DNA from: an uncultured bacterium
GTDB taxonomy: Bacteria > CSSED10-310 > CAZUFC01
Assembly (NCBI GenBank): GCA_964619725.1
Contig: CAZUFC010000018.1
Location: forward strand, 397-64,396
Length of the DNA: 64,000 bases
Reading direction: 5' to 3'
Position 1 is the first letter of the stretch. The number at the start of each line of letters is the position of its first letter. Made by a program: the position numbers and the translations under genes. This document shows, piece after piece, positions 46,398 to 62,422 of the stretch. Below the pieces are notes generated by a model. It worked only from the letters and a program-made list of their open reading frames with translations, ran no database searches and was not told the origin of the DNA.

Positions 46398-47537
46398 TCA
46401 GGAGGCGTTTTTTTCTTCAAACAATTTACGGCATTCGGCCAGTCTTTCGACAATAGAAATATCCTGAGGACATTTATCTTCGCATTCTCCGCATTCGGTG
46501 CAAGCGCTTGCGGGTTTACCGGGATACCAGGGGTCTTTTCCTATTCGATCATATTTTTCTCTGGCGAAATTCTGCATCTCGTAGACGTCGTGGTAAATCT
46601 GGAATTTAAGTATAAGCGGTATGTTCACTTCCTGCGGGCAGGGCATACAATACTTGCAGCCCGTACAGCGTATTTCTCCCTTTTTTTTCAATTCGGTCAT
46701 CACTTGAACCGCTGAATCGATTTCATCGTTATTCAACTCAGCAGTCTTGCTCGCCCACAACAGATTCTCCCGCACCTGTTCGATGGAACTCATCCCCGAT
46801 AAAGCGCAATCAACATCCGGATTCGACCATACGAACTGAAGTGCAAACCGGGCCCGCTCTTCTGCAGAAATATTAAGCTGTTCCAGGACGCTCGGACCGA
46901 ATTCTGTTATCCGGCCGCCGGCTACAGGCCCCATGACGGCTATGCCGAGATCGCGCTCCTTGACTTTTTTCATGGATTCAGCGTTGCTCATATCCAGCAG
47001 GGAATACTGACACAGAACCGCTTCAAAAATATCAACCTCAGCCAATGTCGCCAAGTCTTCCGTCGGACCGTGAAACGAATAACATAAATGTCTGACCAGT
47101 CCCTCCTCTTTCAATGCAGCGAATTTTTTTATCCAACCGAACTTGTCGTCAAGCTCTTTGTACTCTTTTTCATTAATCCCATGCAAATAATAAATATCCA
47201 GATAATCAGTCCGCAACTTCTCCAACTGTTCATCAAAAACGCGGCGGAAATCCCCAGGCTCCTTGTACACCCAACCCGGAGCCTTGGTTGATAAAATAAT
47301 GTCCTTCCGATACGGCTCCAGCAACTTCCCCATCACATTCTCCGACTCGCCGCCATGATAAGGATACGCCGTGTCAAAATAATTCACGCCGCCATCCATC
47401 AACTCCTCAAACATCAATTCCGTATGCTCCATGTCGATTTTCTTCATGTCGGCCGGATCGCTCAACGGCAACCGCATGCAACCCATCCCCAAACGCGAAA
47501 TCTGAATGTCCGTTTTGCCGAACCTTTTGTAAATCAT
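46398..47537 (-). CDS. Aldo/keto reductase with C-terminal 4Fe-4S dicluster
   Basis: LGMGCMRLP, YFDTAYPYHGG.SE, CTGCKYCMPCP and CTECGECEDKCP. Confidence 0.93.
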   Translation of the reverse strand: MIYKRFGKTDIQISRLGMGCMRLPLSDPADMKKIDMEHTELMFEELMDGGVNYFDTAYPYHGGESENVMGKLLEPYRKDIILSTKAPGWVYKEPGDFRRVFDEQLEKLRTDYLDIYYLHGINEKEYKELDDKFGWIKKFAALKEEGLVRHLCYSFHGPTEDLATLAEVDIFEAVLCQYSLLDMSNAESMKKVKERDLGIAVMGPVAGGRITEFGPSVLEQLNISAEERARFALQFVWSNPDVDCALSGMSSIEQVRENLLWASKTAELNNDEIDSAVQVMTELKKKGEIRCTGCKYCMPCPQEVNIPLILKFQIYHDVYEMQNFAREKYDRIGKDPWYPGKPASACTECGECEDKCPQDISIVERLAECRKLFEEKNAS

Positions 47538-47626
47538 CTTTCCCTCCCGCCCTTCTCTGTTACCGTTTTTTCTTCATAATCGAACGAAGAGCCTCTTTTA
47601 ACATACTATGAAACATGATGAATTCA

Positions 47627-47816
47627 TAGGAGGTTCAAAAAATTTGAATTTTAAGTTTTTCATAGATCGTCATGATGCCAAAAATCGTCTTTATCCCGCA
47701 GCATTGAGATTTAAAGCTTTACGAGATTTAGAGTCAGTAGTGAAATAATAATTGGCGTCTTTCAGCAACAACAATTTCAAAAAATTTGAAAAAAATTCAA
47801 ATTTTTTGACCCCCTA
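47627..47816. mobile_element. 190-bp MITE with ~25-bp TIRs and 4-bp TSD TTCA
   Basis: TAGGAGGTTCAAAAAATTTGAATTTT ... AAAATTCAAATTTTTTGACCCCCTA; TTCA at 47623-47626 and 47817-47820. Confidence 0.8.
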
Positions 47817-47843
47817 TTCAGCCATTTCGCCGATTTCTACGTT

Positions 47844-48027
47844 TAACACGCATTTCTCATGCAAAACCTGTTACGAACGTCCATATCACCGCAGATTCAA
47901 GCGGCGATCCCTACGGTCTTGCTCAATATAGCGCTGCTATGCTTCCGCAGGCCTCCGGTCCGCCACACTTGAATCTGCGGGAATCTGAACGTTCTCGCTA
48001 CGATTTTATATGATAAATCCGGACTAA
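47844..48027. mobile_element. ~184-bp fold-back element (MITE-like)
   Basis: Long imperfect terminal IR with a perfect CCGCAGATTCAAG (47889) / CTTGAATCTGCGG (47968) core and a central ATAGCGCTGCTAT hairpin. Confidence 0.6.
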
Positions 48028-48054
48028 GTCATTGTATTTTCGTTCACAGACCTT

Positions 48055-48071
48055 TTGGCATGAAAAATGCT
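48055..48071 (+). promoter_or_regulatory. Putative sigma-54 (-24/-12) promoter
   Basis: TTGGCATGAAAAATGCT = GG-N10-GC; IHF-like TAAGTCATTGTAT at 48025-48037. Confidence 0.6.
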
Positions 48072-48081
48072 TCCATATCAG

Positions 48082-48245
48082 CGTCAGCTTCGGACCGAAT
48101 GCAGACAAACTTACGCTCGATGGAAGGCAGGGGGCATGCCGCTGTAGACGGTAAAACCTCAGCGGCCGGACTATGCCCGATAAAGAAATGCTCTGCGCCC
48201 AAACCGGGCGTGGGGGAGGGCCCGAAAAAAGGGGCGGGGTTTATC
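48082..48245 (+). ncRNA. Candidate structured small RNA
   Basis: GC-rich island with successive hairpins starting at the predicted +1; no credible CDS downstream. Confidence 0.35.
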
Positions 48246-48440
48246 CTTTGATTTTAAGGGTTTAGCCCCTGCTGCCGTATTCCTTGTGTCGACAAGTGTA
48301 ATTGGAATTTTTTAACGGGGGATATTACGTCGCAAAATGCGGGATTCCTGAACTTGATTTTTCGGGGCCAGGGGAATCACTGAAAGAAATCGATCCATCC
48401 TTTCAGTAAGCATCAAAAGGAAAGTTCAATGAGAAATATT

Positions 48441-48922
48441 CGGCACTGATTGAAAACAGGTCTTTTGAGTTTACAATACGGCAAAATATCCCATCGTCTT
48501 GTTTTGATTGCGGTTGCGATTTATATCCCGATCCGACCCAGATTACTGAAGCGAACCGTCATACTTCAGAACTCCTGACAAAGACAACCTAATATATTGA
48601 AATCAATTGACTTTTTTACACTGAGTCTCGGCATAAAAATTGTGCAGTTTTTAGCCCCCCCTATATCCGTGAAAAGAGCGTTGATTAATCGAAATTCAAA
48701 GATTGGCACTGATGTCAATGAGGATACAGGATGATGTTTCTTGTGGTTTTTAATAGTCTTCATATTCGATTAATCAACGGACCCGCAAGCGGGGGAATTT
48801 TGTTTAATTGATTTTTTTGATCGATTACTGGATTTTCGTCGAATATTTCACAATTTTTTATCGGTCAATGTCAGGATATGTGAAATTTTTCTAAGAAGCG
48901 TAATCCCGGTTTGATCAGTCCC
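48441..48922 (+). mobile_element. Composite or interrupted TGATCA-ended repeat
   Basis: Left end GGCACTGATTGAAAACAGGTCTTTTGAG at 48442; right end GTAATCCCGGTTTGATCAGTCCC at 48922; 48835-48890 matches the reverse complement of 20471-20525. Confidence 0.65.
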
Positions 48923-48981
48923 GAATATTCAATTTTAAAACGTCAGAAGCATTTATACGGCGAATCATCGATAGATTCAGT

Positions 48982-50109
48982 TCAGTCCAGTTCCTCCGTC
49001 AATCTTGGAATCATGCATGCCCATAGCATGGCTCGTTCTGACGTATGACCGAAGCGGCCTTTCAGCGGTTCTGAGCCGTCGGGTTCGAAGACTTCCATGT
49101 AAGTCCGGTATTTTTCTATGTGTTCGGTATATTGTTTGAGATAGAAGCGGGCTTTTTGGGGGTAGATTTTTGCAGTCATTCTGATGAAGATCGGGGCGTG
49201 AAGGGTCCAGATGGAGTCGCCTTGGTAATTGGGCATGAAGAGACGAGCCATGAGATGCGGCGGCGACTTCACATCCTTTTTTTCATGGTATTTCAAGGGG
49301 AAAGGTTTATCCAGCATCTTGCCGATTATAGCATCGATGGATTTTTTCATCATACCTTCGTCGTTGATTATGCCTGTCCAGTAAGGCCATACGTTTGCGT
49401 CGGACGAGCAGACGGGCTCATCGTCCTGCAGATCGTTGCGGAAATATTTGCCTGTCCAGAATGCCTTTATGAATTCATTTATCAGGTCTTCTTCGTCAAA
49501 AGGATTATCCAAAATGTCCTCAAATTCTTTCAGCAACTCAGCGCAGAAAATCATGAAAGTATTGTCAGTGCATGAGCGTTTCCGTCCGGCTACGTCTTTA
49601 ACGTTTGAAAAGTAACGATTTGCAACTGTTTTCCGTTTTTTATCGAACACCGTTTTATAATATGTCCAGATTTCTTTGTTCAGCAGACTACGGTATTCAG
49701 CGGCCAGTTCTTTTTTTCCGGATTTTAAGAGGCAAAAAAGGAGGTAAGGGAGTGAGTCTGAGGAGTAGGTATAGATATTGACGGCAGCTTTTGACTGAAA
49801 TATGGTCGTAGAGATTTTTCCGTTTAGTTTATAGACATTGAGCGCCCATTTCAGGTTTTGAACGAGTTTGTATTTGTAACCGAGATAAAGGAGGTCTTCT
49901 ATGCACCAGCCCAGGTCTCTGATCCAGAACTGGTCCAGATGTACTGCTCCGGCTTTGAAGTAACTGCCGTTCCAGCAATCGTCGGCGATAGATTTGCAGA
50001 TTTGAACGGCATTACCCTGGTATTTTTTGTATTTTTTTTTTGAGAGATCGTGCCTGAGCAGTCTTACGCCTTCTTTGATCATAATCCAGGAGTTGGCGAT
50101 TCTGTTCAT
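48982..50109 (-). CDS. Putative (alpha/alpha)6 glycoside hydrolase-like protein
   Basis: QFWIRD motif, DSLP, and YQGDSIW / YMEVF patterns seen in six-hairpin glycosidases; no signal peptide. Confidence 0.55.
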   Translation of the reverse strand: MNRIANSWIMIKEGVRLLRHDLSKKKYKKYQGNAVQICKSIADDCWNGSYFKAGAVHLDQFWIRDLGWCIEDLLYLGYKYKLVQNLKWALNVYKLNGKISTTIFQSKAAVNIYTYSSDSLPYLLFCLLKSGKKELAAEYRSLLNKEIWTYYKTVFDKKRKTVANRYFSNVKDVAGRKRSCTDNTFMIFCAELLKEFEDILDNPFDEEDLINEFIKAFWTGKYFRNDLQDDEPVCSSDANVWPYWTGIINDEGMMKKSIDAIIGKMLDKPFPLKYHEKKDVKSPPHLMARLFMPNYQGDSIWTLHAPIFIRMTAKIYPQKARFYLKQYTEHIEKYRTYMEVFEPDGSEPLKGRFGHTSERAMLWACMIPRLTEELD

Positions 50110-50133
50110 GATAAATGCTTCCCTCAATCGAAA

Positions 50134-51564
50134 TTAAAGTTTAATTTTCTTCCATTTACCTCTCTGGAACCAGGTAAAAGCCATCAATCCCGAAACTGTG
50201 ATGGCGATAGTTTGAGCCCAGAATATGCCGTTGACTCCCAGTTCCGGTAATTTGCTGAGGTAAAGCGCCAGGGGAACCTGCAAGCCCCACAGGCTTATTA
50301 AGGTGATAATCATGGGAGTAATAGTATCGCCGGCGCCTGCCAGGCTTCTGTTCAAAACGATGGACAATGCAAGGAAAGGCAGGCAGATAGAGGTTATACG
50401 GAGCATTGCGGCCCCGATTTTCAATACTTCGGGATTGGTATCAAAGAGGCGGATGAGTGTTTCCGGAAAAAAGAGGAAGGCCGTAAACAGTGCAGAAAGC
50501 ATGATCAAGTAGAAGCCTACGGCCGAGTAGGCGCTTTTGGTTGAACGACTGACTTTACCGGCTCCCAGGTTCTGTCCGACCAGACTGGCGGAAGCTATGG
50601 CGAAGCCGAAACCGGGGAACAGGGCCAGCATGAACATGCGGTGTCCCACGCCGAAAGCCGCTACGGCAGCCGTACCGAATCCGGCGGCAATCCCCATAAT
50701 CACGACTCCCATGATGCCGCGGACGCTGAGCTGGATGGAGTTGGGTAAGCCTAAACGGATAATCGTCGCGAGTATTTTCCAGGAGGGTTTGAGATAGGCC
50801 GGGACGAATTTGATTCTGAATTTGCCCTTGTACAAAATAAACAACATGATTAATGAAGCGATGATCCTGGAAGAAACGGTAGCTGCAGCGGCCCCTGATA
50901 TGCCCATTTCCGGGAAGGGTCCCCATCCGAATATCAGAAAAGGATCGAGACACATGTTGATTACGAGGACGGAGGACATAACCTTCATCGGCGTAAAAGA
51001 ATCGCCGGAGCCTTGCAATGAGGCGTTGAGCACAAAAGTCAGGAATACGAAAGAACTGAAGGAAAACATTATACTTAAGTATTGCACGCCCTGCTCTGTA
51101 ACTTCAGGACTCGCTCCCATCAACCGGAAAAGGTCCGAGGAAAACATTACGCCGAAAATCGAAACGGGAACAGAAATGATGAGTCCCAATAAAACGGCGT
51201 TGGCGCAAATTCTGTCGGCCCTGTCAAAATCCTTTTTTCCGTAAGCCCGGGCAATCATGGCTGACGCTCCTGTTCCTACTCCCATAACGAACATGAACAG
51301 CAACATCATCAGGGTTCCGGCAATTGCAACGGCGGCCAGTGATTGAGACCCCAAACGGCCTACCCAGAACATGTCCACGATGTGAAAGAGACTGTTGGTG
51401 AGGTTGGTTATGATCTGAGGTAAAGCAATTATCCATATCGATCTTGATATGCTGCCCCTGGTCAGGTCCAATTTCGTGCCCTTTTTGGTAACTCCAATAA
51501 TTTCCCTCAGAAGACTCCTGTCTCCAGGCACATAAGATTCCGATGCGTTCATCTTGTCATCCAC
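50134..51564 (-). CDS. MATE family (MOP superfamily) transporter
   Basis: DLTRGSI, DMFWVGRLG, GDSFTPM, LDPFLIFG, GAAAAT and GQNLGAG; ~12 TM segments. Confidence 0.93.
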   Translation of the reverse strand: MDDKMNASESYVPGDRSLLREIIGVTKKGTKLDLTRGSISRSIWIIALPQIITNLTNSLFHIVDMFWVGRLGSQSLAAVAIAGTLMMLLFMFVMGVGTGASAMIARAYGKKDFDRADRICANAVLLGLIISVPVSIFGVMFSSDLFRLMGASPEVTEQGVQYLSIMFSFSSFVFLTFVLNASLQGSGDSFTPMKVMSSVLVINMCLDPFLIFGWGPFPEMGISGAAAATVSSRIIASLIMLFILYKGKFRIKFVPAYLKPSWKILATIIRLGLPNSIQLSVRGIMGVVIMGIAAGFGTAAVAAFGVGHRMFMLALFPGFGFAIASASLVGQNLGAGKVSRSTKSAYSAVGFYLIMLSALFTAFLFFPETLIRLFDTNPEVLKIGAAMLRITSICLPFLALSIVLNRSLAGAGDTITPMIITLISLWGLQVPLALYLSKLPELGVNGIFWAQTIAITVSGLMAFTWFQRGKWKKIKL

Positions 51565-51792
51565 GCTCTTCTACGATTGAAGAGACATTCGATTCGTTTT
51601 ATTTCTATTTGGATTATTCACGTTTTGGGCTGCTTCCTGCATTTAATGAGGCTGCTCACCTGCATTCATCCCTGAACCATTATCATCGGCCGGCGCCATT
51701 CAGCCGACCCGCATTCTCAATTGGCGAGATTAAGGCAGTCGAAGCCTTAAGTCAAATTTACTTTTTCTGCGAGTCAACTGAAAACAGCATAA

Positions 51793-52728
51793 CTACAAAA
51801 GAACATTCAGTGCCGAGGGGCAGATGCGGAACTTCGCCGGAAGCGTTCCCGTCTGCTCGCCGTCAATATCCAGAAACACTTTTTCATCCGACAGCGCTCG
51901 AACTTCCTGCGCCCTGTGCACCTCAACTTTCTCATGAAGTATGTGCTTTCCCGAATAAATCAACGGCATTGTTCTTATAAGGTCATAGGTTTCCAGTTCT
52001 TTGATGACTACTACATCGAAACGGCCGTCGTCTATTTCCGCATCGGGCGCCACGCACATGCCGCCGCCGAAGTATTTTCCGTTCGATATCGCCGCTCCTA
52101 CAATTTTCTGTTCATCCAGTTCCTTTTCATCCAAATAGAGTTTAACCTTCTTGGGAGCGAAACTAAGAATAGTCATTACTGAGCTGTAAAGAAAAGAAAC
52201 AAAGCCGCCGAAAAATTTGGTCGTTCGGTTAACCCTGTCAGCGACTTCTCCTCCTATTCCCATATCCGCTATGTTGATGAATCGCCTTTCGATTTTTTTC
52301 TGAGCGTGGTCGACAAAAGATGCGATGCCAAGGTCGACTCTTTTAATTTTCCCGTCAGTCATTTTTTGTATCTGTTTTTCATAAGGAAATTTACCGGAAA
52401 GGGTTTTTATCAGGTCCTGTCCTGTGCCGACAGATATAATCCCTAATGCTGCATCGTCGTTGACAGGGAAACCGTCCTCTTCGAAGAATCCGTTAACGAT
52501 TTCATTCACTGTTCCATCGCCGCCCACCGCCACGAGCAGATCGAATCCTTTTTTCAGTTTTTCGCGAGTCAAAGAAAGGGCTTCCATGGGTTGACGCGTA
52601 AATTGAGCTTCAAATCGCCAGCCGTTAAGCTCCATTTTTTTTCTTATAAAAGGCCATATACGGGCAGCTTTTCCATTTCCCGCATTCGGATTGATTATTA
52701 CAAATATTTCAGCGGATTTTACATTCAT
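51793..52728 (-). CDS. Diacylglycerol/lipid kinase family (DAGK_cat, YegS-like)
   Basis: NPNAGNG, GGDGT.NE, GTGQD, NGKYFGGG and DGE. Confidence 0.93.
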   Translation of the reverse strand: MNVKSAEIFVIINPNAGNGKAARIWPFIRKKMELNGWRFEAQFTRQPMEALSLTREKLKKGFDLLVAVGGDGTVNEIVNGFFEEDGFPVNDDAALGIISVGTGQDLIKTLSGKFPYEKQIQKMTDGKIKRVDLGIASFVDHAQKKIERRFINIADMGIGGEVADRVNRTTKFFGGFVSFLYSSVMTILSFAPKKVKLYLDEKELDEQKIVGAAISNGKYFGGGMCVAPDAEIDDGRFDVVVIKELETYDLIRTMPLIYSGKHILHEKVEVHRAQEVRALSDEKVFLDIDGEQTGTLPAKFRICPSALNVLL

Positions 52729-52740
52729 TTTCCGGTTACC

Positions 52741-53853
52741 TCACGCTCCAAGCGCTTCGCTGAGCACATCCATAATGTCTTTAACTCTGCCTTCTTTTCC
52801 GTCGACGTTATTAAACGCTCTCGTGCATTCCGGACAGGCGGTAACGAGGATATCGCCTTTGCGTACTTTGAATTCCCGGAATCTTCTTTCGGCAATGGCG
52901 GCGGCTGTTTCAGGAACGGTAAAGGACAGCCGGCTTCCATAGCCGCAACAGATTGCATCTCTTTTATGCCAATGAAATTCCTGGAATCCGTTTCGGCAGA
53001 TTTTTTCCAATATCCTTCTCGGCGCCTCGAATATATTAAGTTTTCTTCCCAAATAACAGGGATCATGATAAAAAATTTTCCCCTCGACCGGATGAACCGG
53101 CTTATTTACATCAGCAACGTAAGGGGAGAAAAATTCGGTTACATGGACGAATTCCGTTCTGCTTTTGAATCCCAGGGCGGGATAACGCTCCAGAAACTCA
53201 ACCAGACATTCCGGGCTATGGCAGATAACCTTTTTCGCATGCTTTATATTCTTCCAGAATTTTCCGGCATGCTTTTCAAATTCATCGGCAAATCCCAGAA
53301 CATCCAGAGGTTCGCCGCAGCAAAACGGCGGTTCCGTCATGACTCCCACAAAATCGATTTCAAAGAATTTCAGGAGTTTAATAATGGAAGCTAAAGTTTT
53401 CGGACTGTTCGCAACTAAATCGCAACCAGGAAAATAGAGGACTTCTGCATCATTGACTTTGTATTCTTCGGGAACATAGTGATCGAGATTTTTTTTCAAG
53501 TCGGTTTTGTGAAGGCTGCCGAAATGAGTGAAATTCCGTTTCAAATTTCTGGTATCTCTGGAGATAAGTTTCAAATCGACGGCTTGTCGTCTTGCTTTTC
53601 TCATGACGTCGGGTATTACGACGTCGTGATCGCAATATTCAAAGCATGCCATACAGAAGGCACAATGATGAAACAAAGAGGCGGTTTCGACGTCGAAAGG
53701 TCTAAAGCCTTTTTCGACAAGATAAAACAGCGTCTGCCTGCCCCATGGCGTAGACGTTTCGCTGCTTTCAGCAACGGCGACAGGGCATGAAAACCGGCAC
53801 AATTTAGGACAATAAGCGCAATATCTGGTTTCCCATCCCGGTTCGTCAGTCAT
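52741..53853 (-). CDS. Fe-S oxidoreductase subunit (2x4Fe-4S + 2 CCG domains; GlcF/GlpC-like)
   Basis: CAYCPKLCRFSC, CAFCMACFEYC, CCGEP, HDPCYL and CCGYG. ATG overlaps the upstream stop (ATGACTGA), with GGGAG RBS. Confidence 0.88.
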   Translation of the reverse strand: MTDEPGWETRYCAYCPKLCRFSCPVAVAESSETSTPWGRQTLFYLVEKGFRPFDVETASLFHHCAFCMACFEYCDHDVVIPDVMRKARRQAVDLKLISRDTRNLKRNFTHFGSLHKTDLKKNLDHYVPEEYKVNDAEVLYFPGCDLVANSPKTLASIIKLLKFFEIDFVGVMTEPPFCCGEPLDVLGFADEFEKHAGKFWKNIKHAKKVICHSPECLVEFLERYPALGFKSRTEFVHVTEFFSPYVADVNKPVHPVEGKIFYHDPCYLGRKLNIFEAPRRILEKICRNGFQEFHWHKRDAICCGYGSRLSFTVPETAAAIAERRFREFKVRKGDILVTACPECTRAFNNVDGKEGRVKDIMDVLSEALGA

Positions 53854-56689
53854 AATGTATCTCCCTGAAAGCGGGGATTGAAGCCAGAAAACGACGAGCC
53901 TCCTTCGCCATTGTCCATTTTTCCTCCGGATAGTATAAAAGCTCACCTTTGCGTTTAAGCATCAGAAGGCTTAATCCCGCTTTTTCAGCCGTCTTTTTAA
54001 TATCTTCATCACTCGGCAGGGCACTTTTTTTCATTTTTATCCAAAGCGTCGCTCCGTGCTTATTGCATCTGCTGAGCATCGCCGGTTCTCCGCAGACATC
54101 ATTGAAGAATGAATCGTTGCTGAATATTATCAGCAGGTCTTTCCAGATTCCTGAAACGGAAATCATCCGCTCATTCATTTTCAGGTTGAACAATTCTGAA
54201 TTTTTTTCAATTTGCACCTCAGATAACCTGTCGCCGATATTTTTCATGCTTTTTTGAAATCGCTCGAGTTGGATGGACGCTCTTTTGCGGTCTCCGTATG
54301 ACGTGGCCTGTACAAGTAATTTTCGTCCGCCGTCATCGAACAGCATTTCGCAATGAAGAGTCGTCATATCGGCTGCCAGGAGTCCGGCGATCGCTTTAAG
54401 AGTTTTCCGGGCATCTGAAGTTTGAAAAATTTCACTTGCGGCCGCTTTTTCTATTCTGCGTATTTTGAACCTTACCGCAGTCATCAGCACGAAATGACCG
54501 CCCGAACCTATGAAAAGAGGCTTCAGATCGGGGCCTGCAGCGGAAGCGGGAACATTCCTGGTTTTTAATTCCGATCCGTCCGGAAGAAGGCCGGTCCAGG
54601 ATAAAATGGAATTTTCAAGACTCATTTCCGTCAATCCGTCAGGATAAACCATGCGAGCGCCGAGCAGACCTCCGAGAGTACCTTCATCATATCGATTGCA
54701 GGCGAAGGCCGGCCTGTAACCCTCTTCTTTGAGTTTTTCAATGATGTCCTTGATTTTTGCTCCGCTTTCGGCTTCCGCTGTCATGGTAATGGGGTCCGGC
54801 TTGAAGATGCGGTTAAGCGAAGTCATTCTAATGATATATGCGCCGCTCAATTCACCCGGATTAAAAAAAGTTCTCGTTCCGTTACCCACAACATAAATTT
54901 TTTTATTTTTACCGAACAATAAGCTTATGCATTCCGCCAATTGATTTTTGTTCTCCGGCATCATGATGCATTTCGGTAAATCCGCTTTTTCCGGCGTCAT
55001 GAAGGGTAATGACTTTTTCACGAAATCGGCGATTTCGGCGCTGTCTTTTATGATCCCTTTTTTTCCTGCAATAGTTTCCAGTCCTCTCACCGTATCTTTT
55101 CTCTTTTTAGTCTTTTTCGGAACATCAATATTGTCAGGATTCAGACTCATTTTACCGGGATTCATTAAACCACCGGGATCAATAACGCTTTTGAAGCTAC
55201 GCAAGACATTGATGCCGTTGCCTTTTTCTTTCGGCATCCAATTTTGCTTAAGGAACCCTATACCATGATGATGAGATATCGTCGCATCGCATTCGAGAAA
55301 AGCATCGAGGGCTTGCGCCCATACCCATTGATGCGTTTTCAGCGCTGTTTCAGCATCATTTTCATTTCCCACGACAGAAAAATAAATGGAACATCCTTCG
55401 GGGTAGGGATGAGAAAAATGCGCCATAATGAATGCCTTTTTACGGACCTTACTTATAACGGCATGGTATAGAGCTTCCACTTTATCCCAGGTTGCGCAGG
55501 TTTCTATCGTATCGACGAAGGAGCCAGCGTCGAAAATTTTCGATTGGTTGTATGACACGTGATAGCGGTTGTTCCACCAGTTTTCAGCGGGTTGGCTGCC
55601 GGCGTTTTCTCCGTCGTTTTTCTCGCATATATCCGTTGCAGCCTTAAGATCATGGGCAGATATTTCGTCATTCCCTTCAAACGTCATAATCAGTAAACAT
55701 TTGTCGGGAATGATGCCCGCCGGCAGGTTCAGTTTTGTCGGATGAGCGAGCAACCAGGCTTCGCTTCTGGAATAGATGGATTTCGATATAAATTCAAGTG
55801 CCTTGAACAAATGTGTATTCAGCAGTTGCGCCGTAAGAGGCGTTTTACCTCCGGAGGATTTCCCCACGAGCAGGGTGTCGAAGGGATCGTACAGTCTGAC
55901 GGCTGCAGGTTTAACGTCGCTCTGCATTATTTCCCGTATAGCGTTCAAAGCATCCTTTAAGTTTTTAAAATAGAATCCCTGAAAACATCGCGCCGCCGGT
56001 TTCCGGTATATTTTAAGCGTAGCCTGGGTAATGACGCCCAGGGTTCCTTCCGCTCCCACGAACAGTTCTCCCGCGTTCTTCTCATGCGAAGGAAAAAGTT
56101 CAGGTGACGTCGTTTCAACGATCTTTCCATTCGGTAAAACTACTCTTAGAGCAACGATCATATCTTCAATCTTGCCGTACCGGGGGGAAAGCTGCCCTGC
56201 GCTTCGAGCGCTGATCCAGCCTCCCAAAGCCGAGCAGTAAATGGACGAAGGGAAATGACCGAGAGTAAACCCGCGATATTGCAGTTCCCTTTCCAGTATT
56301 TCACCGATGATGCCGGTTTGAACTTTAGCGATAAGGCTGTTTTTATCCAGGGAAATGATGCGATTCATACGCTTCATATCCAAAATGACGCCGCCTTCCA
56401 ACGGCGCTGTTCCTCCGCATACCCCTGAGCCGCAACCAAAGGGAACGACAGGAACGGATTCCGCCCGGCAAACCTCCAATATCCGGGAAATTTGTCGTTC
56501 GTTTTTGGGTTTAACTATTATTGAAGGAAAGGGACAATATTTGCCGGCTCTTAATTTGATGATCGACCGAGGGTCCAGGTCCCTTGAATAGGCTATTTTA
56601 TCCGGCTCGTTATGCGAAATGTTCGGTTTTTTGACGATTTTTTCAAGTTTTTTTTCTACGGCGCTCAGTTTTTGTATTCGTTCATTCAT
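53846..56689 (-). CDS. Alkyl-dihydroxyacetone-phosphate-synthase-like FAD protein fused to a second (GlcE-like) FAD-binding domain
   Basis: PFGCGSGV.GG, LGHFPSS...S.LGGW..ARS.G..S..YGKIEDM, G.EGTLG, HFSH.Y..G.SIYF and ISHHHGIG (ADPS HHH). Second domain has VGNGT, TLGG and AGPDL..LFIGS.G. Confidence 0.82.
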   Translation of the reverse strand: MNERIQKLSAVEKKLEKIVKKPNISHNEPDKIAYSRDLDPRSIIKLRAGKYCPFPSIIVKPKNERQISRILEVCRAESVPVVPFGCGSGVCGGTAPLEGGVILDMKRMNRIISLDKNSLIAKVQTGIIGEILERELQYRGFTLGHFPSSIYCSALGGWISARSAGQLSPRYGKIEDMIVALRVVLPNGKIVETTSPELFPSHEKNAGELFVGAEGTLGVITQATLKIYRKPAARCFQGFYFKNLKDALNAIREIMQSDVKPAAVRLYDPFDTLLVGKSSGGKTPLTAQLLNTHLFKALEFISKSIYSRSEAWLLAHPTKLNLPAGIIPDKCLLIMTFEGNDEISAHDLKAATDICEKNDGENAGSQPAENWWNNRYHVSYNQSKIFDAGSFVDTIETCATWDKVEALYHAVISKVRKKAFIMAHFSHPYPEGCSIYFSVVGNENDAETALKTHQWVWAQALDAFLECDATISHHHGIGFLKQNWMPKEKGNGINVLRSFKSVIDPGGLMNPGKMSLNPDNIDVPKKTKKRKDTVRGLETIAGKKGIIKDSAEIADFVKKSLPFMTPEKADLPKCIMMPENKNQLAECISLLFGKNKKIYVVGNGTRTFFNPGELSGAYIIRMTSLNRIFKPDPITMTAEAESGAKIKDIIEKLKEEGYRPAFACNRYDEGTLGGLLGARMVYPDGLTEMSLENSILSWTGLLPDGSELKTRNVPASAAGPDLKPLFIGSGGHFVLMTAVRFKIRRIEKAAASEIFQTSDARKTLKAIAGLLAADMTTLHCEMLFDDGGRKLLVQATSYGDRKRASIQLERFQKSMKNIGDRLSEVQIEKNSELFNLKMNERMISVSGIWKDLLIIFSNDSFFNDVCGEPAMLSRCNKHGATLWIKMKKSALPSDEDIKKTAEKAGLSLLMLKRKGELLYYPEEKWTMAKEARRFLASIPAFREIHYD

Positions 56690-56770
56690 CGTTTATTTTC
56701 CATCTGAAAAATTAGAAATGTTCTTTCCGGTTCGCAAAGCATCAGGGTTATGCCCCGGCCTATCAGCAAA

Positions 56771-57997
56771 TCAGCGCTTTTCATTACCGCTTTCAGATTG
56801 CTTAAGAAATTCTGAGAAAGTCATAACCGGAAAATCGTCTAAATCCGAGAACTTTCTGAAAACATAACGGCTGGTAGGACAAAATGTGACCATAATTTTC
56901 GCCTTTGAGAGGAAAGCCCGTTGCACGCCTTGAGCCGCCATTGCTTTAACCAGTTTCTTGTGAGTGATTCCCGCGCCTCCGCCTGCGCCGCAACAGGGAG
57001 CGGTTTCCGGGTCCTGGTCCATGTTCGTTATTTCCGCTCCCGTTTGTTTCAGGAGCATTCTGTTCAGAACGCCCAGGTTTTCATACCGGGTAAGCAGACA
57101 GGGATCGTGTATAAATATCTTTTCGGGGATGCTCAACGACGGCAAACGGTTTCGAAGCGCTTCGGTAATAAAGAGAATCCTGAATGAATGTTTGAAGTAA
57201 GGGCTGTTTTTAAAGAAAAGGAAGCAACCGGGACATCCCGTTATAATTGTGTCTGCACCTGCTTTTCTCAACATCTCCAAATTACGGCGAATCAAGTTCT
57301 CCTGTTCTGAAGATGGGAAGCCGAAAACATCAAGTATCCTCCCGCAACAGACTTCATCGATTAAGCCGGCTTGCAGGCCTGCTTTTTTTAACCAATAAAG
57401 ATCATGGTCCGCTGTTTCAGGACTTCTCCACCGGACCGTGCAACCTCTGAAATATACGATTTGAAATTTACCGGTTGCCTGGCCTCCGGACTGCCCGAAA
57501 ATATTTCCGCTTTGCTGCAGGTTCTTTATCGTTTTTTGAATTTTTTCAGGAAGCTGTTCCCGTGACGTCCGGTAAACCGAGCTCCGCACGAATTTGACCA
57601 TCTGAGCGACAGGAACTTCCTCCGGGCAAACAGACTCGCATTGCCGACATAGCAGGCACATGTAAAGCCGGTCTGTCGTGGAACGACTTTCCGGAACAGA
57701 ACGGCCGTAAGCCGTCACGTATTCCCGTGGGCCGGGAAATTCCGGCAGACTGCCGGTTTTTACTAGTTCACAATGATCTTCGCATAGTCCGCAACTGACG
57801 CATCTTTCAAATTCAGGCAATCTTTTCAGGTCGTTGAAAGTATAACCGGAGATTCTGTCTTCATGATACGTTTTCTCAAATTCATCAGCCTGATCGCTTC
57901 TGGATTTGAATATTCCGGCGATTCTTTGAAAAAGATGAATATTGAACCTGATACCCAGATGAAAAATGGCGCTGATCGCTCCTCTTATCTTCCCCAT
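56771..57997 (-). CDS. Fe-S oxidoreductase, GlpC-like (2x4Fe-4S + 2 CCG)
   Basis: CVSCGLCEDHC, CLLCRQCESVC, CCGR, GCPGC, HDPC and CCGAGGG; start uncertain (57997-58045). Confidence 0.85.
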   Translation of the reverse strand: MGKIRGAISAIFHLGIRFNIHLFQRIAGIFKSRSDQADEFEKTYHEDRISGYTFNDLKRLPEFERCVSCGLCEDHCELVKTGSLPEFPGPREYVTAYGRSVPESRSTTDRLYMCLLCRQCESVCPEEVPVAQMVKFVRSSVYRTSREQLPEKIQKTIKNLQQSGNIFGQSGGQATGKFQIVYFRGCTVRWRSPETADHDLYWLKKAGLQAGLIDEVCCGRILDVFGFPSSEQENLIRRNLEMLRKAGADTIITGCPGCFLFFKNSPYFKHSFRILFITEALRNRLPSLSIPEKIFIHDPCLLTRYENLGVLNRMLLKQTGAEITNMDQDPETAPCCGAGGGAGITHKKLVKAMAAQGVQRAFLSKAKIMVTFCPTSRYVFRKFSDLDDFPVMTFSEFLKQSESGNEKR

Positions 57998-58013
57998 GAT
58001 CCGGCTTTTCCTT

Positions 58014-59402
58014 TCAACCGCCTCCCGCAAAAAGCGAAGGAACATTCAATCCGGCGGCGTATCCCGTCAAAAGAGCGGTCCCTAATCCGCAACTTTCCTC
58101 TACAGGATCGTAACCGCTCAGGACAGAACCGGCGAGCATGACATTTTTCCAGATGACCTTACCGGTGTCATCTACGGGACGTAACATGCCGTCGGTCCAT
58201 ATGCCCGATGAAAACAACGGTTGTTTTCCGAAAAAAGATGGATGGCTTAATTTGGCTGCGTTCGCGGCGCTCAGAACTCCATCGCGTGATTGAAGTTCAA
58301 GGTTCAACAATTTATTACAAACAGCGCCCTTATCGTTTAATTCGGTTCCGGCAAACCGTCCGACTGCGAAAATAAAAGCGTCTGCCTCGATTATCAGTTC
58401 GGCGCCTGATATCTTTCTCAGACAGACCGCTTCAATTCCGTCTCCTTCCGTATTAAATTTAACCGATGCGATACGGCCCCGGAGAACAGGAATACCGGCA
58501 GACATCAGCATTTTTTCCAGTCTGCGTTTTATCCTGATTCCCGCAGCCCCGGGAAACGGCGATACTATCTCAGCGACGGATTTGTTCAGCTCATTTTCCA
58601 GTATCTGCAGACATTCTTCATGCCGCTCCAGTCCCAGAACACAGGGAAAAATCACCATATCAACATCGTTCGAGAGCGATTTCAATTCAGTTTTCACTTT
58701 TTCAGCGATTTTAAGGGAACAAGAAGCATCATCCAATTTTCTTGCGATTTGAGCGGCTTTGATTTCGTGGGAATTCTTCAAATCATCCAGCTCTAATTCG
58801 CATGCCTTAACTGATTTACTGAAAGAACCGGATGATAATGAGTTTTGTAATTTTTCTTTGAGGAATGCCGAGATATACCCGGCTGAAAATTCCGGATATT
58901 GTTTAAAACCTGTAATCAGAAGCGATTTCGAGTTCAGATTTTCTCTTCTACATTCGTAAAAGGCCGGCAGGCAATAATCGGTCCAACGATAGGCGCCGAA
59001 GGAGGTCAAAAGTTCTATCGATCTCTCAGGCGTTCCTTTCCAATATGATTCGTCCTCGCCGTCATCGAATGCTTCAACAACGGCACGAACAGCTTTTGAA
59101 AGTCCGCCGTTATCATTTTTACTTCGGATAATTTCCGCTACTTTGGCATAAGGATGTTCCGGATTGCGCTCGATAAGCCGCTTTATCCTCTGATCTAAAT
59201 TCAAGTCCCGGCGGTTATTAATTCGATAATAGTCGTCCCACTCGGTGGGAGAAGCGAAATGAAGCAAGCCCGATGAAAGTTGCGTTTCACCTCCCCCGCC
59301 TTCAAGGACGCACAAATTGAGACCGGATTCTTTCGCTTTCAGGGCTGCCATCGTTCCTGCAGCTTCTGCCCCTGCGATGATCAGATCGTAACGCCGGTTC
59401 AT
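58014..59402 (-). CDS. glpB: Anaerobic glycerol-3-phosphate dehydrogenase subunit B-like
   Basis: N-terminal FAD Rossmann (divergent GAEAAG), G.T.LSSG, HPY, P.VLG, PG..G.R and GSVLSGYDP...CGLG.A..TG. Confidence 0.78.
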   Translation of the reverse strand: MNRRYDLIIAGAEAAGTMAALKAKESGLNLCVLEGGGGETQLSSGLLHFASPTEWDDYYRINNRRDLNLDQRIKRLIERNPEHPYAKVAEIIRSKNDNGGLSKAVRAVVEAFDDGEDESYWKGTPERSIELLTSFGAYRWTDYCLPAFYECRRENLNSKSLLITGFKQYPEFSAGYISAFLKEKLQNSLSSGSFSKSVKACELELDDLKNSHEIKAAQIARKLDDASCSLKIAEKVKTELKSLSNDVDMVIFPCVLGLERHEECLQILENELNKSVAEIVSPFPGAAGIRIKRRLEKMLMSAGIPVLRGRIASVKFNTEGDGIEAVCLRKISGAELIIEADAFIFAVGRFAGTELNDKGAVCNKLLNLELQSRDGVLSAANAAKLSHPSFFGKQPLFSSGIWTDGMLRPVDDTGKVIWKNVMLAGSVLSGYDPVEESCGLGTALLTGYAAGLNVPSLFAGGG

Positions 59403-59484
59403 CGGTAATCCCTCCGGTATTTCCGGTTGCCGGGTAAAAGGAGGCGGCAGAAGCGCCCCTGGTTGAATAGGAGAGTATTACAAT

Positions 59485-61140
59485 TCATTTTAATGCGCCT
59501 GTACCCAGATGTATAAAACGATTTATCTGTTCCTGCAGCAGGTTGATCCTGGAAGCGACGGGACGGCGGTTTTTCCATTTTGATTGAAGAAAAGAGCGTA
59601 ATTCATTTTTTATCTGATCCGCTCCCCATTCCAATTCTTCTCCAAGAATAACCGCTGCCTGGAATGAACAGGAAAAACCTCCGCAGGGACCCATCCCGAG
59701 TCTCGTCCGCCTGCTGATGTCTTCCAGCGTTGCGGCATGTTCATGTCTCACGGCGTGCCTGATTTCAGCGCGACTGATCGATTCGCACCGGCATATAATG
59801 GTTTTTTTGTCCTGGTCGTCCCATTCGTCCGATTCCAGTATATCCTGCGCCGTCGTTCCATATCGGCAAATCATACGTTCCGCAGCTAACTCGATAATAC
59901 CGTGTTTTCTTGCAAGTTCGCCGGCGCTTACGGAGGATGCGCTTCCCGGTAAAGGGAGCTCCCGGGTTCTGCAGGCGCTGCAGGTACGCTTTCTGTTCAG
60001 TTTTTCACATACGCGGTCAACAGCCTTTTCCGCCATCAGGCGATAATCAGCCAATTTTCCTCCCGTTATAGTCGCCAATCCTTCGATGCCGTCAGACTCA
60101 GCGTGATCAATTACTTTGAAATCCCTGGACAGGCGATCCTCGTTCACCCCCCAATCGAACAAGGTAGGCCTAATACCGGCTATCACCCCTGTGATCCGTG
60201 CCTCCCTGATCCGGGGAAGAACCCGCTCCATCGACGCCAGCAGGTATTCGACCTCATCATTTAAAACTTCAATATCGTCCAAATCTCCGAAATAATCATC
60301 ATCCGTCGTTCCCAGCATGCTGATGTTTTCATGCGGCTGAACGAATATCTCACGCCCGTCCATGGCCGTGGCTACGACGGCATAATTCACTATCCGCCGA
60401 TCGAACAGAATGTGCACCCCTTTGGCAGGCCTGAGCTTCACCTCCGCACCGGCCATCTCAGCCAATTCCGAAGACCAGGGTCCGCCGGCATTTAAAATTA
60501 TATCGCATTCCAATTCCTTGTATTCACCCGTCAATTCGTTCACGCAATTCAGTCCCGTTATTCTTCGGCCTTCCCGTCTGAAACCGGCCGCTCGATGGTG
60601 ATTCCATATCTCAGCGCCGTGCTCCCTGGCTGATAAAGCATTCAAAAGACATAAACGATATACGTCTATCCCCCATTCATCAAAAGTGATCGCTCCCTCC
60701 GTCATCCACGACAATCCCGGTTCCAACTTCAAAACCTCTTCTCGCCTCAACCTCAAATGACGTTTGCCGCCCTTTAACCGGCTGAACCGGTCATATTCCT
60801 TCATGAAAGTTTCGATCAATTCTATCTGTATCTTCGGAAATAACTTATCCTTCAAGACAGGAAATATAAAAGGAATGCGGAATATCAGATGTCCCGCGTT
60901 TTCTGCTATTGAACCGCTGTCCTCACAAGCGTCTCGCGTCGTCTTGCGATCATACAGCAAATATCGCACGCCGCCGTGGATCATGCCGCTCGATACGCCG
61001 CTCGTTCCCGATCCGAAATCGTTTTTCTCAAGCAATAACGTCTTTACGCCCCGCAGCGCCAGATCACGCGCGCACCCGCTGCCCACTGCTCCGCCGCCGA
61101 TCACGATACATTCAAATTTTTTTTCTCCTCTTTCTTTCAT
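59485..61140 (-). CDS. glpA: Anaerobic glycerol-3-phosphate dehydrogenase subunit A-like with C-terminal BFD [2Fe-2S]
   Basis: GGGAVG...ARDLALRG, SGMIHGGVRY, KGVH, GTTD, AGIRP, GGKL..YR and CRCE...RTRLGMGPCGG..C. Confidence 0.9.
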   Translation of the reverse strand: MKERGEKKFECIVIGGGAVGSGCARDLALRGVKTLLLEKNDFGSGTSGVSSGMIHGGVRYLLYDRKTTRDACEDSGSIAENAGHLIFRIPFIFPVLKDKLFPKIQIELIETFMKEYDRFSRLKGGKRHLRLRREEVLKLEPGLSWMTEGAITFDEWGIDVYRLCLLNALSAREHGAEIWNHHRAAGFRREGRRITGLNCVNELTGEYKELECDIILNAGGPWSSELAEMAGAEVKLRPAKGVHILFDRRIVNYAVVATAMDGREIFVQPHENISMLGTTDDDYFGDLDDIEVLNDEVEYLLASMERVLPRIREARITGVIAGIRPTLFDWGVNEDRLSRDFKVIDHAESDGIEGLATITGGKLADYRLMAEKAVDRVCEKLNRKRTCSACRTRELPLPGSASSVSAGELARKHGIIELAAERMICRYGTTAQDILESDEWDDQDKKTIICRCESISRAEIRHAVRHEHAATLEDISRRTRLGMGPCGGFSCSFQAAVILGEELEWGADQIKNELRSFLQSKWKNRRPVASRINLLQEQINRFIHLGTGALK

Positions 61141-61219
61141 AATGTCATTTCTAACCGTATTAACGCATTGTGTCAAGAGCTTGAAATAAATAATCATTAC
61201 GGGAAAAATTAAAAAATTC

Positions 61220-61357
61220 GGGAATGATCAACCCGGGGTTGCACTTCATTCTAAACTTTTGACGTTTTGTTTCAGTAATCGGGATCGCAATCGAAACAAA
61301 ATGAGGGGAGATTCTGTCGAATTGTAACCTCAAAAGACGCCTCTTTGATCGATGCCC
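61220..61357 (-). mobile_element. TGATCA-ended MITE-like repeat
   Basis: GGGAATGATCAACCCGGGGTTGCAC...GTAACCTCAAAAGACGCCTCTTTGATCGATGCCC. Confidence 0.85.
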
Positions 61358-61495
61358 TCTCTAAAAAATGCATATCGCTTTATCATTGTCAATCATCAAA
61401 CGCATCGCATAGAATGAAGGCTGCGTAGAATTTTGGTCGCATGAGCAGGACATCAAATCAGGATCGCCGAAATAAAGTCGGCAGAGCAGGGAAAA

Positions 61496-62422
61496 ATGTT
61501 GAACCGTGTGAAGAATTTCTTTATTTACAGCAGATTTCCGTTTTTTACGGGAGTGGTCATGCCGGTAATGATAGGGACGAGTCTTGCTTATGCGGAAGGA
61601 CATCCTGTGCATTGGGTTCGTTTTCTGATGGTTCTGGCCGGGATGGTGTTTGTTCATGCCGGTATGAATCTGGCCAATGATTATTATGATTTCAAGAGCG
61701 GGGCCGACCTGGGGAACCGCAATCGAGGACCTTTTTCAGGAGGCGGTCCGGCGCTGATTGAAAAGCGTGCGACACCTGGGCATGCAAAAGTATTGGTTGT
61801 ATTTTCATTTGCCGTATCGGCGCTGATGGGTATTTCACTGGCATTGGCGGTGAAGGAAGTCCTGGGGCTGTTAATTTTTCTGATGGTCGCCGGTTTCCTG
61901 GGCGGCTATTTTTATGCTGCGCCGCCGGTGCAGCTTGCGTACAGGGGATATGGCGAATTGTTCATATTTCTTTGTTTCGGGCCGCTTGTTGTTCTGGGCG
62001 CTTATGCGGTCCAGAGCAGTATTTTTTCCTGGTCTGCAGTGTGGGCAGGCTTTCCTGTCGGGTTCCTCATAACCAATGTCTTATGGATCAACCAGTTTCC
62101 CGATGCTGAATCAGACAGGCAAGCCGGAAAAATGACCCTGGTGGTAAAAATGGGAAAAGCTCGTGCCCGTATACTTTTTTATCTCTTTTTTGCGGCGGGG
62201 TTTGCTGCACTGCCTGTTCTTTTTTTTGCGGGAGTGATAAAAGCGCCGGCGCTTGTCGCTCTGATTCCTGCCTTATTGGCCCTGAAGGCTTCGCTCATAT
62301 GCCGCAGGCATTACGATAATGCAAAGGCTCTCCTGCCTGCGCAACGTTATACCATCCTGGTCCATGCTTCCACGGGCATCCTGATGGCGCTCGGTCTGAC
62401 GGCATCCGGTTTTATCTCTTGA
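61496..62422 (+). CDS. menA: 1,4-dihydroxy-2-naphthoate prenyltransferase (UbiA family)
   Basis: NLANDYYD, Y..PP..L.YRG.GE and NQFPD..SD..AGK.TL.V motifs. Confidence 0.85.
   Translation: MLNRVKNFFIYSRFPFFTGVVMPVMIGTSLAYAEGHPVHWVRFLMVLAGMVFVHAGMNLANDYYDFKSGADLGNRNRGPFSGGGPALIEKRATPGHAKVLVVFSFAVSALMGISLALAVKEVLGLLIFLMVAGFLGGYFYAAPPVQLAYRGYGELFIFLCFGPLVVLGAYAVQSSIFSWSAVWAGFPVGFLITNVLWINQFPDAESDRQAGKMTLVVKMGKARARILFYLFFAAGFAALPVLFFAGVIKAPALVALIPALLALKASLICRRHYDNAKALLPAQRYTILVHASTGILMALGLTASGFIS

Follow-up and report, generated by a model that had tools for sequence, protein, structure and literature searches.

What does a flavoprotein related to alkyldihydroxyacetonephosphate synthase (AGPS, also called ADPS) do when its gene sits between a set of glycerol-3-phosphate (G3P) dehydrogenase genes and a lipid-type kinase? 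The question is raised by a locus of an uncultured microbial-mat bacterium of the lineage CSSED10-310 (assembly GCA_964619725.1, contig CAZUFC010000018.1). We analysed a stretch of 64,000 nucleotides (nt) of this contig; the whole stretch is called the window, and coordinates are window positions unless another locus is named. On the minus strand, eight co-directional open reading frames (ORFs) occupy 48982-61197, and one plus-strand ORF (61496-62422) diverges from them across 298 nt. A preliminary description of this DNA had listed the eight co-directional genes and the divergent menA, both of which are real, and had read them as a single pathway of ether-lipid metabolism.

We find instead that the locus combines two adjacent flavo-iron-sulfur dehydrogenase sets with a kinase. 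The first set resembles GlpABC. The second pairs a 947-residue flavoprotein, P0001, with its own iron-sulfur (Fe-S) protein. The unit formed by P0001, this partner and the kinase is a never-studied combination, and a variant of known flavoenzyme kinds. With a probability of roughly 0.4, we propose that it is a kinase-fed, quinone-linked enzyme acting on a glycerolipid-derived, C1-substituted glycerol phosphate or dihydroxyacetone phosphate (DHAP), from which AGPS-type chemistry would free the substituent.

The assignment of P0001 comes from its N-terminal half. An end-to-end alignment of residues 32-514 with Dictyostelium ADPS (Protein Data Bank (PDB) entry 2uuu) scores 239.5 bits, against 136 bits for the best D-lactate dehydrogenase (D-LDH). 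In a Foldseek search with the full-length AlphaFold model of P0001 (predicted local distance difference test (pLDDT) 78, predicted TM-score (pTM) 0.84), ranks 1-37 were all AGPS chains (E about 1e-31, target-normalized TM-score (TMt) 0.72-0.77, 26-27% identity); mouse D-LDH, a smaller protein, came after them at TMt 0.86-0.88. The earlier description of this protein as ADPS-like is thus borne out for the N-terminal half, which stands closer to AGPS than to GlcD or D-LDH both in sequence and in fold. The modelled fold fits an AGPS-type core without the extra N-terminal domain of AGPS. P0001 is the only AGPS-like gene of the genome, which also carries two GlcD-like paralogues and one YdiJ-like gene.

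The active-site residues are preserved. The triple-histidine (HHH) loop noticed previously is present at H473-H475, within ISHHHGIG (about residues 472-479), and aligns with the HHH of both solved enzymes. By alignment, Y436 corresponds to the catalytic tyrosine (Y508 in Dictyostelium, Y578 in guinea pig) and R265 to an arginine (R352 and R419, respectively); the guinea-pig numbers were taken from the alignment and PDB titles, and the residue names from the review PMC3509576. None of these residues (H473-H475, Y436 and R265) varies among 25 fused relatives. In an alignment of 83 rows, HHH, Tyr and Arg are kept by the window row and by 80 rows from related loci; the two outgroup rows, the genome's own GlcD-like paralogues, have S-[GA]-E-H-G in place of HHH and lack the AGPS residues. 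We place the N-terminal half in the HHH-loop, AGPS-like branch of the VAO/PCMH flavoenzymes. It shares with AGPS/ADPS (EC 2.5.1.26; 2uuu, 4bby, M. xanthus MXAN_1676) the FAD_binding_4 and FAD-oxidase_C fold, the HHH, the Tyr and one Arg.

The C-terminal half is of another kind. Residues 530-947 match only FAD_binding_4 (63 bits), with PDB sequence matches of at most 33 bits. Of the 119 best homologues of P0001, 77 are fused (at least 850 amino acids (aa)) and 42 short (at most 560 aa); one HHHG occurs in all 119, and no second HHHG was found in the C-terminal half of P0001 or in the 77 fused relatives. At two basal loci, L005 and L008, a gene of its own encodes the second FAD protein, a full copy in which the HHH is retained. 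Because the C-terminal half keeps only FAD_binding_4, has no second HHHG and finds HHH-bearing separate counterparts at these loci, the fusion looks like a GlcD-GlcE-type pair whose second member has presumably decayed.

Together with its Fe-S protein, P0001 therefore makes up a GlcDEF-like unit, which the preliminary description had not seen. As in GlcDEF and the D-2-hydroxyacid dehydrogenases, there are three parts: a catalytic FAD domain, a second FAD domain without the motif, and a subunit with two 4Fe-4S and two CCG motifs. The electron route, from flavin through Fe-S clusters to quinone, is likely shared as well. An ordinary GlcDEF-type glycolate or D-lactate dehydrogenase that merely adjoins GlpABC would have the same build, and the GlcD and GlcF models do match the flavoprotein and the Fe-S protein. 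We nevertheless consider it extremely unlikely: the score of P0001 falls far under the GlcD cut-offs (TIGR00387, 241.8 bits versus 567.9; PRK11230, 123.6 versus 897), AGPS ranks above D-LDH in sequence and fold, HHH stands where the two true GlcD-like paralogues of the genome keep x-E-H, P0001 unites the D and E parts in one protein, and the conserved neighbour is a lipid-type kinase.

The Fe-S partner itself matches CCG at 74.8 bits, and its two 4Fe-4S and two CCG motifs are read from the cysteine pattern. Its gene overlaps that of P0001 by 8 nt and is translationally coupled to it: the ATGACTGA singled out earlier at 53846-53853 is real and marks where the TGA stop of P0001 and the ATG of the Fe-S gene overlap. 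This places the true start of the latter at 53853 and gives a product of 370 aa. When residues 1-525 of P0001 were modelled with the Fe-S protein, the predicted complex reached an ipSAE of 0.90 in three runs, against 0.00 for the best of three controls. That mark is reached by 58 of 80 solved complexes and by two of 110 mismatched pairs, a calibration that applies only roughly here because the prediction used an alignment of our own. At least 95% of the contacts are common to the runs, and the partner pLDDT is at least 89.

In the predicted interface, the N-terminal cluster domain of the partner (residues 7-76) lies on flavoprotein residues 22-49, 84-88, 104-152 and 376-387, the last stretch being the one that holds R447 in true ADPS. 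Docking on the catalytic half would imply electron transfer between flavin and clusters, which is needless in a redox-neutral AGPS; the modelled contact supports such transfer. P0001 differs further from AGPS/ADPS by its degenerate second FAD domain and by the obligate-looking nature of its Fe-S/CCG partner.

The kinase completes the unit. It matches DAGK_cat (94.4 bits) and YegS_C (128.2 bits) and passes the cut-off of TIGR00147 (171.6 versus 118.65 bits); its closest solved relative is DgkB of S. aureus (2qv7, 81.7 bits). Both its placement in the lipid-type DAGK_cat family and its role as a conserved partner of the AGPS-like gene (25 of 54 loci, see below) agree with what had been described. 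In M. tuberculosis, glpD1, the flavoprotein Rv2250A/Rv2251 and the diacylglycerol kinase Rv2252 form what we take to be the same trio of G3P dehydrogenase, AGPS-like FAD protein and DAGK-family kinase, presumably with no Fe-S partner.

Conservation of the unit was assessed in related loci, collected by a pattern scan with one genome per species. The scan gave at least 595 stretches, of which 582 code for relatives, and the analysis went on with the best 80 loci; ORFs in them are stop-to-stop frames, with rough gene starts in high-GC loci. At the protein level, 2954 relatives were found at E <= 1e-10 among 8000 candidates scored. The Fe-S gene is present in 35 of the 67 loci with at least 3 kb downstream. 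Where at least 6 kb are available (54 loci), the Fe-S gene occurs in 27 loci, the kinase in 25 and the two together in 23. The arrangement of AGPS-like domain, second FAD domain, Fe-S protein and DgkB/YegS kinase recurs in Myxococcota, Bdellovibrionota, Planctomycetota and other metagenome-assembled genomes (MAGs). The core is conserved more than by chance; the outer genes are not.

Neighbour clustering over the 42 loci with either partner counted the flavoprotein in 42, the Fe-S protein in 41, the kinase in 31, an Lnt-like protein in 12, a GlpA-like protein in nine, a Ser/Thr kinase in seven and aspartyl-tRNA synthetase (AspRS) in six. These loci were chosen for their Fe-S or kinase gene, which makes the counts of 41 and 31 partly circular; the counts from the 54 loci are unselected. 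Lnt (apolipoprotein N-acyltransferase) stands directly downstream of the kinase in 12 of the 42, for example at positions 8150-11179 of L015, an adjacency that may reflect shared ancestry of the loci rather than function.

The other half of the loci is without both partners and includes a clade of 23 Polyangia/Sorangium rows with 100% support in the Shimodaira-Hasegawa-like approximate likelihood-ratio test (SH-aLRT). The trees were quick LG+G4 reconstructions with SH-aLRT only, rooted on the genome's two GlcD-like paralogues and built without M. xanthus or eukaryotic AGPS. In Polyangium jinanense (L044, 7162-12031), a 678-aa AGPS-like gene with a C-terminal extension and without Fe-S or kinase neighbour comes after a phosphatidylserine decarboxylase and a 666-aa methyltransferase-containing protein. 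Two of the 13 same-phylum genomes compared carry a weaker AGPS-like gene, longer by an N-terminal extension. In one (G007; L105, 4939-8342) it is directly followed by a GlpD-type dehydrogenase, and in the other (G009; L106, 7100-12116) it follows an acyl-CoA synthetase and a glycerophosphodiesterase. The wider family recurs beside glycerophospholipid genes: G3P dehydrogenases, glycerophosphodiesterase, acyl-CoA synthetase, phosphatidylserine decarboxylase and Lnt. A further AGPS-like match, in a distant genome (G019:C4:3051-4664), is broken by five stops (two TGA, one TAG and two TAA) and may be a decayed copy or two frames.

What, then, is the GlpABC-like set upstream of P0001? Its GlpA-like protein matches DAO (175.5 bits), DAO_C (63.5) and Fer2_BFD (47.4) in Pfam and scores 406.9 bits with TIGR03377, under the cut-off of 552.8; its closest solved relatives are GlpO (2rgh, 185.9 bits) and GlpD (2qcu, 132.4 bits). 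The GlpB-like protein matches FAD_binding_2 (50.9 bits) and the GlpB models at 142-148 bits, under cut-offs of 174-345 (142.4 versus 174.15 in one case). The GlpC-like protein matches CCG in two stretches (69.5 bits) and Fer4_8 (40 bits); GlpC models give 54-89 bits against cut-offs of 278-280 (PRK11168, 89.4 versus 278). The A-B-C gene order and the domains are those expected of the anaerobic G3P dehydrogenase, and a menaquinone biosynthesis gene lies nearby, although all three proteins remain under the NCBIfam equivalog cut-offs.

The assembly (9.17 Mb in 344 contigs, 90.9% complete) helps to place this set. The GlpA of the cluster is the sole GlpA/GlpD homologue found in it, the next match scoring 50 bits. 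As described previously, the eight genes include neither glpK nor glpF; another contig carries a canonical glpK (699.9 bits). Since the genome offers no second GlpA/GlpD homologue among the matches found and has a canonical glpK elsewhere, GlpABC is probably an ordinary G3P dehydrogenase, most likely the cell's ordinary quinone-linked sn-glycerol-3-phosphate dehydrogenase. For the same reasons, the special role in alkyl-G3P oxidation previously given to it is needless.

Carriers of the Fe-S-linked AGPS-like form show the same pattern. A GlpA/GlpD homologue is found in all 24 such genomes and a GlpK above cut-off in 22, which makes the AGPS-like unit an add-on to the standard glycerol route and not its replacement. 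Two simpler roles were rejected on these counts: that the AGPS-like/Fe-S complex substitutes for GlpD, and that the DAGK-like kinase substitutes for GlpK. In seven of the 24, the GlpA scores at least 490 bits to that of the window; this subtype (45-51% identical) is sometimes unlinked to the unit.

We now propose a possible course of the reaction. First, the kinase would phosphorylate an alcohol derived from a glycerol-based lipid: a mono-alkyl-glycerol, a mono-acyl-glycerol or a diacylglycerol. The C1-substituted glycerol-3-phosphate would then be oxidised at C2 to a DHAP derivative, either by the AGPS-like enzyme or by GlpAB. At the AGPS-type site (Tyr base, Arg, HHH loop and flavin N5), the C1 substituent would be expelled, leaving DHAP. 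Finally, the Fe-S/CCG partner would connect the flavin with the menaquinone pool as an electron carrier, or keep the flavin oxidised. Ether-lipid salvage is a possible role of such an enzyme; a small glycerol-phosphate-like substrate is about as likely.

Several observations weigh against this proposal. P0001 does not have the N-terminal gating domain peculiar to AGPS: ahead of its aligned core there are only about 31 residues, versus about 114 in Dictyostelium and 166 in guinea pig, where the alignment begins at chain residues 115 (2uuu) and 167 (4bby). In AGPS, a gate-keeping helix of this domain shuts the C16 channel, according to the accessible text of PMC3509576. Because the gating domain is absent and the model reaches a TMt of only 0.72-0.77 to AGPS versus 0.86-0.88 to D-LDH, an AGPS-like lipid channel in P0001 is not established. 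A third residue found important by mutagenesis, R447 of Dictyostelium ADPS (PMC3509576, same text), aligns with Q382, with N381 and K384 close by; most relatives have Lys or Arg at 381. The score of the predicted complex expresses the model's own confidence and could also stem from resemblance to solved flavoprotein/Fe-S complexes. The family tree has an unresolved backbone, with the window protein in a basal grade. As for the kinase, we know of no proven physiological substrate for most YegS/BmrU-type enzymes.

Gene context raises further objections. A GlpA/GlpD-like gene is near in only eight of the 53 loci with at least 6 kb upstream, so that a G3P dehydrogenase beside AGPS-like genes, as described for the window, does recur, though in a minority. 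Four of the eight are of the window subtype (L006, L012, L022 and L049; 536-566 bits) and four are GlpD-like (125-227 bits); direct adjacency is seen in those first four, in L034 and L070, and in the same-phylum genome G007. In L006 the order is GlpA, GlpB, a mini-ferredoxin, the AGPS-like gene and the kinase. At the loci L005 (9932-20000) and L008 (1307-10800), two full AGPS-like genes stand in tandem, each with the HHH, and are followed by an Fe-S gene, a GHL13/GHL10-like gene and an unknown gene; neither locus has the kinase, and L008 also has a divergent sodium:solute symporter. This context suggests a small soluble substrate.

These points bring in a rather different enzyme, which we hold to be somewhat unlikely: a dehydrogenase in which the AGPS-like/Fe-S complex oxidises a soluble phosphorylated polyol, such as sn-glycerol-1-phosphate or a glycerol-phosphate-like compound, with a quinone as acceptor and no long chain bound, the kinase making or recycling a related by-product. 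Lipoprotein diacylglyceryl transfer frees sn-glycerol-1-phosphate from phosphatidylglycerol; archaeal lipid is another source. The GlcD/GlcE/GlcF-like build with its predicted Fe-S docking, the missing gating domain, the glycosidase-like genes of the kinase-free L005 and L008 with the symporter of the latter, and the lipoprotein-maturation context given by Lnt downstream of the kinase would all suit it. Against it, the metal-type S-x-E-H-G of the GlcD/D-LDH-like paralogues is replaced by S-H-H-H-G family-wide, with the AGPS Tyr and Arg kept, and the kinase has the lipid kinase DgkB as its closest relative. With GlpA/GlpD in all 24 carriers and GlpK in 22, plain sn-G3P is not a likely substrate; the idea of sn-glycerol-1-phosphate draws on general biochemistry.

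P0001 could also be a biosynthetic AGPS, turning acyl-DHAP and fatty alcohol into alkyl-DHAP as in animals and Myxococcus; GlpABC would supply the DHAP, and the Fe-S protein would only keep the flavin oxidised in an anoxic cell. The catalytic motifs are kept, no other AGPS-like gene is present in the genome, and the genome's best FAR-type (fatty acyl-CoA reductase) gene (152.9 bits with NAD_binding_4) lies 6 kb off, at 41715-42830. Moreover, the carriers include lineages listed as ether-lipid producers or holders of Agps homologues in the accessible text of PMC11868695. We find this role quite improbable all the same, as no DHAP acyltransferase is linked, the FAR-like gene belongs to a separate unit and is absent from all 80 related loci, the kinase is left without a role, and the gating domain is missing. 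The 26-27% identity to mammalian AGPS also compares with about 42% reported for the M. xanthus enzyme. More generally, P0001 is not a plain AGPS, because it has no gating domain and its Fe-S partner implies electron transfer. In M. xanthus, the verified Agps is encoded in a three-gene operon with a FAR-GNPAT fusion (bioRxiv 10.1101/2025.10.10.681575, as far as its accessible text goes), whereas P0001 is partnered with a DAGK-family kinase. A search of the genome for CarF/PEDS1 (PF10520) gave no match, and its control likewise matched no genome.

The kinase-fed, quinone-linked reading that we prefer has one stronger form, improbable as it stands, in which AGPS-type covalent flavin catalysis runs in the breakdown direction and cleaves glycerol ether lipids independently of O2. 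Here the DgkB-like kinase would make 1-O-alkyl-glycerol-3-phosphate, the Fe-S-wired AGPS-like enzyme (or GlpAB) would convert it to alkyl-DHAP with electrons passing to menaquinone, and the HHH/Tyr site would expel the fatty alcohol, with DHAP left. If true, O2-free cleavage or salvage of glycerol ethers would fill a long-standing gap, the degradation of ether-lipid biomarkers in anoxic settings. It would be the first anaerobic counterpart of alkylglycerol monooxygenase and would explain the recycling of buried ether lipids. An AGPS-type active site wired to Fe-S clusters would in itself be a new combination in flavin chemistry.

Extending this chemistry to all eight genes, as the preliminary description did, is very doubtful. 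In that scheme, a glycosidase would take off the sugar head and the MATE protein would move the lipid; phosphorylation by the kinase would give alkyl-G3P, from which GlpABC would form alkyl-DHAP. The AGPS-like enzyme would then free the alcohol, with MenA as supplier of the quinone. Its core chemistry is compatible with the conserved motifs and with the kinase partner; the last gene has a glycosidase-like predicted fold, and in L005 and L008 the unit is followed by glycosidase-like genes with a different fold. Yet the MATE gene and the glycosidase-like gene occur in none of the 80 related loci, the kinase and MATE genes are separated by a 228-nt gap, and GlpA is probably a housekeeping enzyme, being the sole G3P dehydrogenase homologue found in a genome with canonical glpK. 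The menA gene is likewise absent from the 80 loci at E <= 1e-5, with one 23-bit UbiA-family match at E <= 1e-3. Contrary to what had been supposed, the outer genes are thus not conserved with the unit, beside which the MATE gene, the glycosidase-like gene and menA stand in this genome alone; lack of conservation was a ground on which the preliminary description itself would have counted its scheme as refuted. The nearest genomes compared are the 13 of the same phylum.

Seven of the nine family assignments made previously held up. Among the outer genes, the MATE protein matches MatE (223 bits) and passes TIGR00797 (292.1 versus 147.4 bits), and MenA matches UbiA (124.9 bits) and passes TIGR00751 (114.2 versus 102.15 bits). 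"Glycosidase" did not hold as a family call: the last gene has no Pfam or NCBIfam match even at E <= 1 and none in a PDB profile search, and its 34 homologues are all unnamed or labelled hypothetical. What stands is the predicted fold. The model (pLDDT 92.6, pTM 0.93) retrieves amylo-1,6-glucosidase (GH133), rhamnosidases (GH78), GH116, GH100 invertase and GH63 in Foldseek, with a probability of 1.00, a query-normalized TM-score (TMq) of 0.5-0.67 and 10-15% identity (141 matches at E <= 1e-3), and an ESM Atlas feature search gave the same glycosidase-like lead. A glycosidase-like fold is thereby supported at the level of the model. D65, D118, D172 and E339 are invariant in 30 relatives, as residues not mapped onto catalytic positions. 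The coordinates of all features are collected in Table 1.

Table 1 Genes and domains of the locus, in window positions.
Feature	Position	Strand	Matches and motifs
GlpA-like FAD/2Fe-2S G3P dehydrogenase subunit, 570 aa	59485-61197	-	DAO, DAO_C, Fer2_BFD; TIGR03377
GlpB-like flavoprotein subunit, 462 aa	58014-59402	-	FAD_binding_2; GlpB models
GlpC-like Fe-S protein, 424 aa	56771-58045	-	two 4Fe-4S motifs, two CCG domains
Flavoprotein P0001, 947 aa	53846-56689	-	two FAD_binding_4 stretches, FAD-oxidase_C
P0001 N-terminal half (residues 1-520), AGPS-like catalytic module with HHH loop	55130-56689	-	FAD_binding_4, FAD-oxidase_C
P0001 C-terminal half (residues 530-947 and stop), degenerate second FAD domain (GlcE-like) and unassigned tail	53846-55102	-	FAD_binding_4
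Fe-S partner of P0001, 370 aa, GlcF/GlpC/HdrD-like	52741-53853	-	two 4Fe-4S motifs, two CCG
DgkB/YegS-family (DAGK_cat) kinase, 311 aa	51793-52728	-	DAGK_cat, YegS_C, TIGR00147
MATE transporter, 476 aa	50134-51564	-	MatE, TIGR00797
Protein without sequence family, predicted (alpha/alpha)6 glycosidase-like fold, 375-381 aa	48982-50127	-	Foldseek
MenA (1,4-dihydroxy-2-naphthoate polyprenyltransferase)	61496-62422	+	UbiA, TIGR00751

Spacing within the row of genes is mostly tight. GlpA and GlpB are separated by 82 nt, the GlpB and GlpC-like genes overlap, and 81 nt lie between the GlpC-like gene and P0001. The Fe-S gene is followed by the kinase after 12 nt, and the MATE gene by the last gene after 6 nt. 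Promoter-like sites (19, versus 19.4 in shuffled sequence) and terminator-like sites (18 versus 19.9) showed no excess, and no Rfam families or tRNAs were found in 41000-64000. Sequencing runs matching 49500-59400 comprise four DNA runs from one microbial-mat study, with no RNA run listed.

How far does this branch extend, and how has it been read so far? Our literature search, which covered papers but not their supplements, found none describing an Fe-S- and kinase-linked AGPS-like unit. In one study, the phylogenetic signal of AGPS was judged too low and only proteins of 500-700 aa were kept, so the fused form was left out (bioRxiv 10.1101/2025.10.10.681575, accessible text). Surveys of MAGs with the M. 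xanthus Agps as query count its homologues as ether-lipid or plasmalogen potential (PMC11868695; bioRxiv 10.64898/2026.06.23.733905), the former requiring E < 1e-30 and an identity of 30% or more in BLAST. The accessible text of these two surveys makes no mention of an Fe-S, kinase or GlpA context of the homologues, on which their supplementary tables may bear.

Thousands of proteins belong to or neighbour this uncharacterised branch, and automatic annotation at the Joint Genome Institute (JGI) calls some of them alkyldihydroxyacetonephosphate synthase. Should the Fe-S-linked branch serve a different purpose and its proteins pass the survey thresholds, counts of ether-lipid potential in MAGs could be inflated.

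Further features surround the locus. The FAR-like gene (371 aa, minus strand) scores 232 bits with PRK07201, against a cut-off of 549, and 95 bits with a thioester-reductase domain. It is followed on the same strand by an 880-aa protein (38872-41514) with a weak C45 acyltransferase/hydrolase match (48 bits, under cut-off), which occurs in none of the 80 related loci. Between the cluster and the FAR-like gene sits an aldo-keto reductase fused to a C-terminal 4Fe-4S dicluster domain (46398-47537, minus strand, 379 aa), also absent from the 80 loci. The 1.4 kb or so directly downstream of the last gene (47580-48980) lack any ORF longer than 65 aa and gave neither an Rfam match nor a tRNA. Elsewhere in the genome, an HGD-D match of 402 bits, a possible lead to PlsA/Ger, lies on another contig. 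Finally, 21462-38121 encodes large secreted-type proteins (a sulfatase-TPR fusion, a 1482-aa LamG/cohesin protein, a 1249-aa S8 subtilase and a C13-peptidase/fn3 protein), and an ISL3 transposase fragment is found at 29427-29885.

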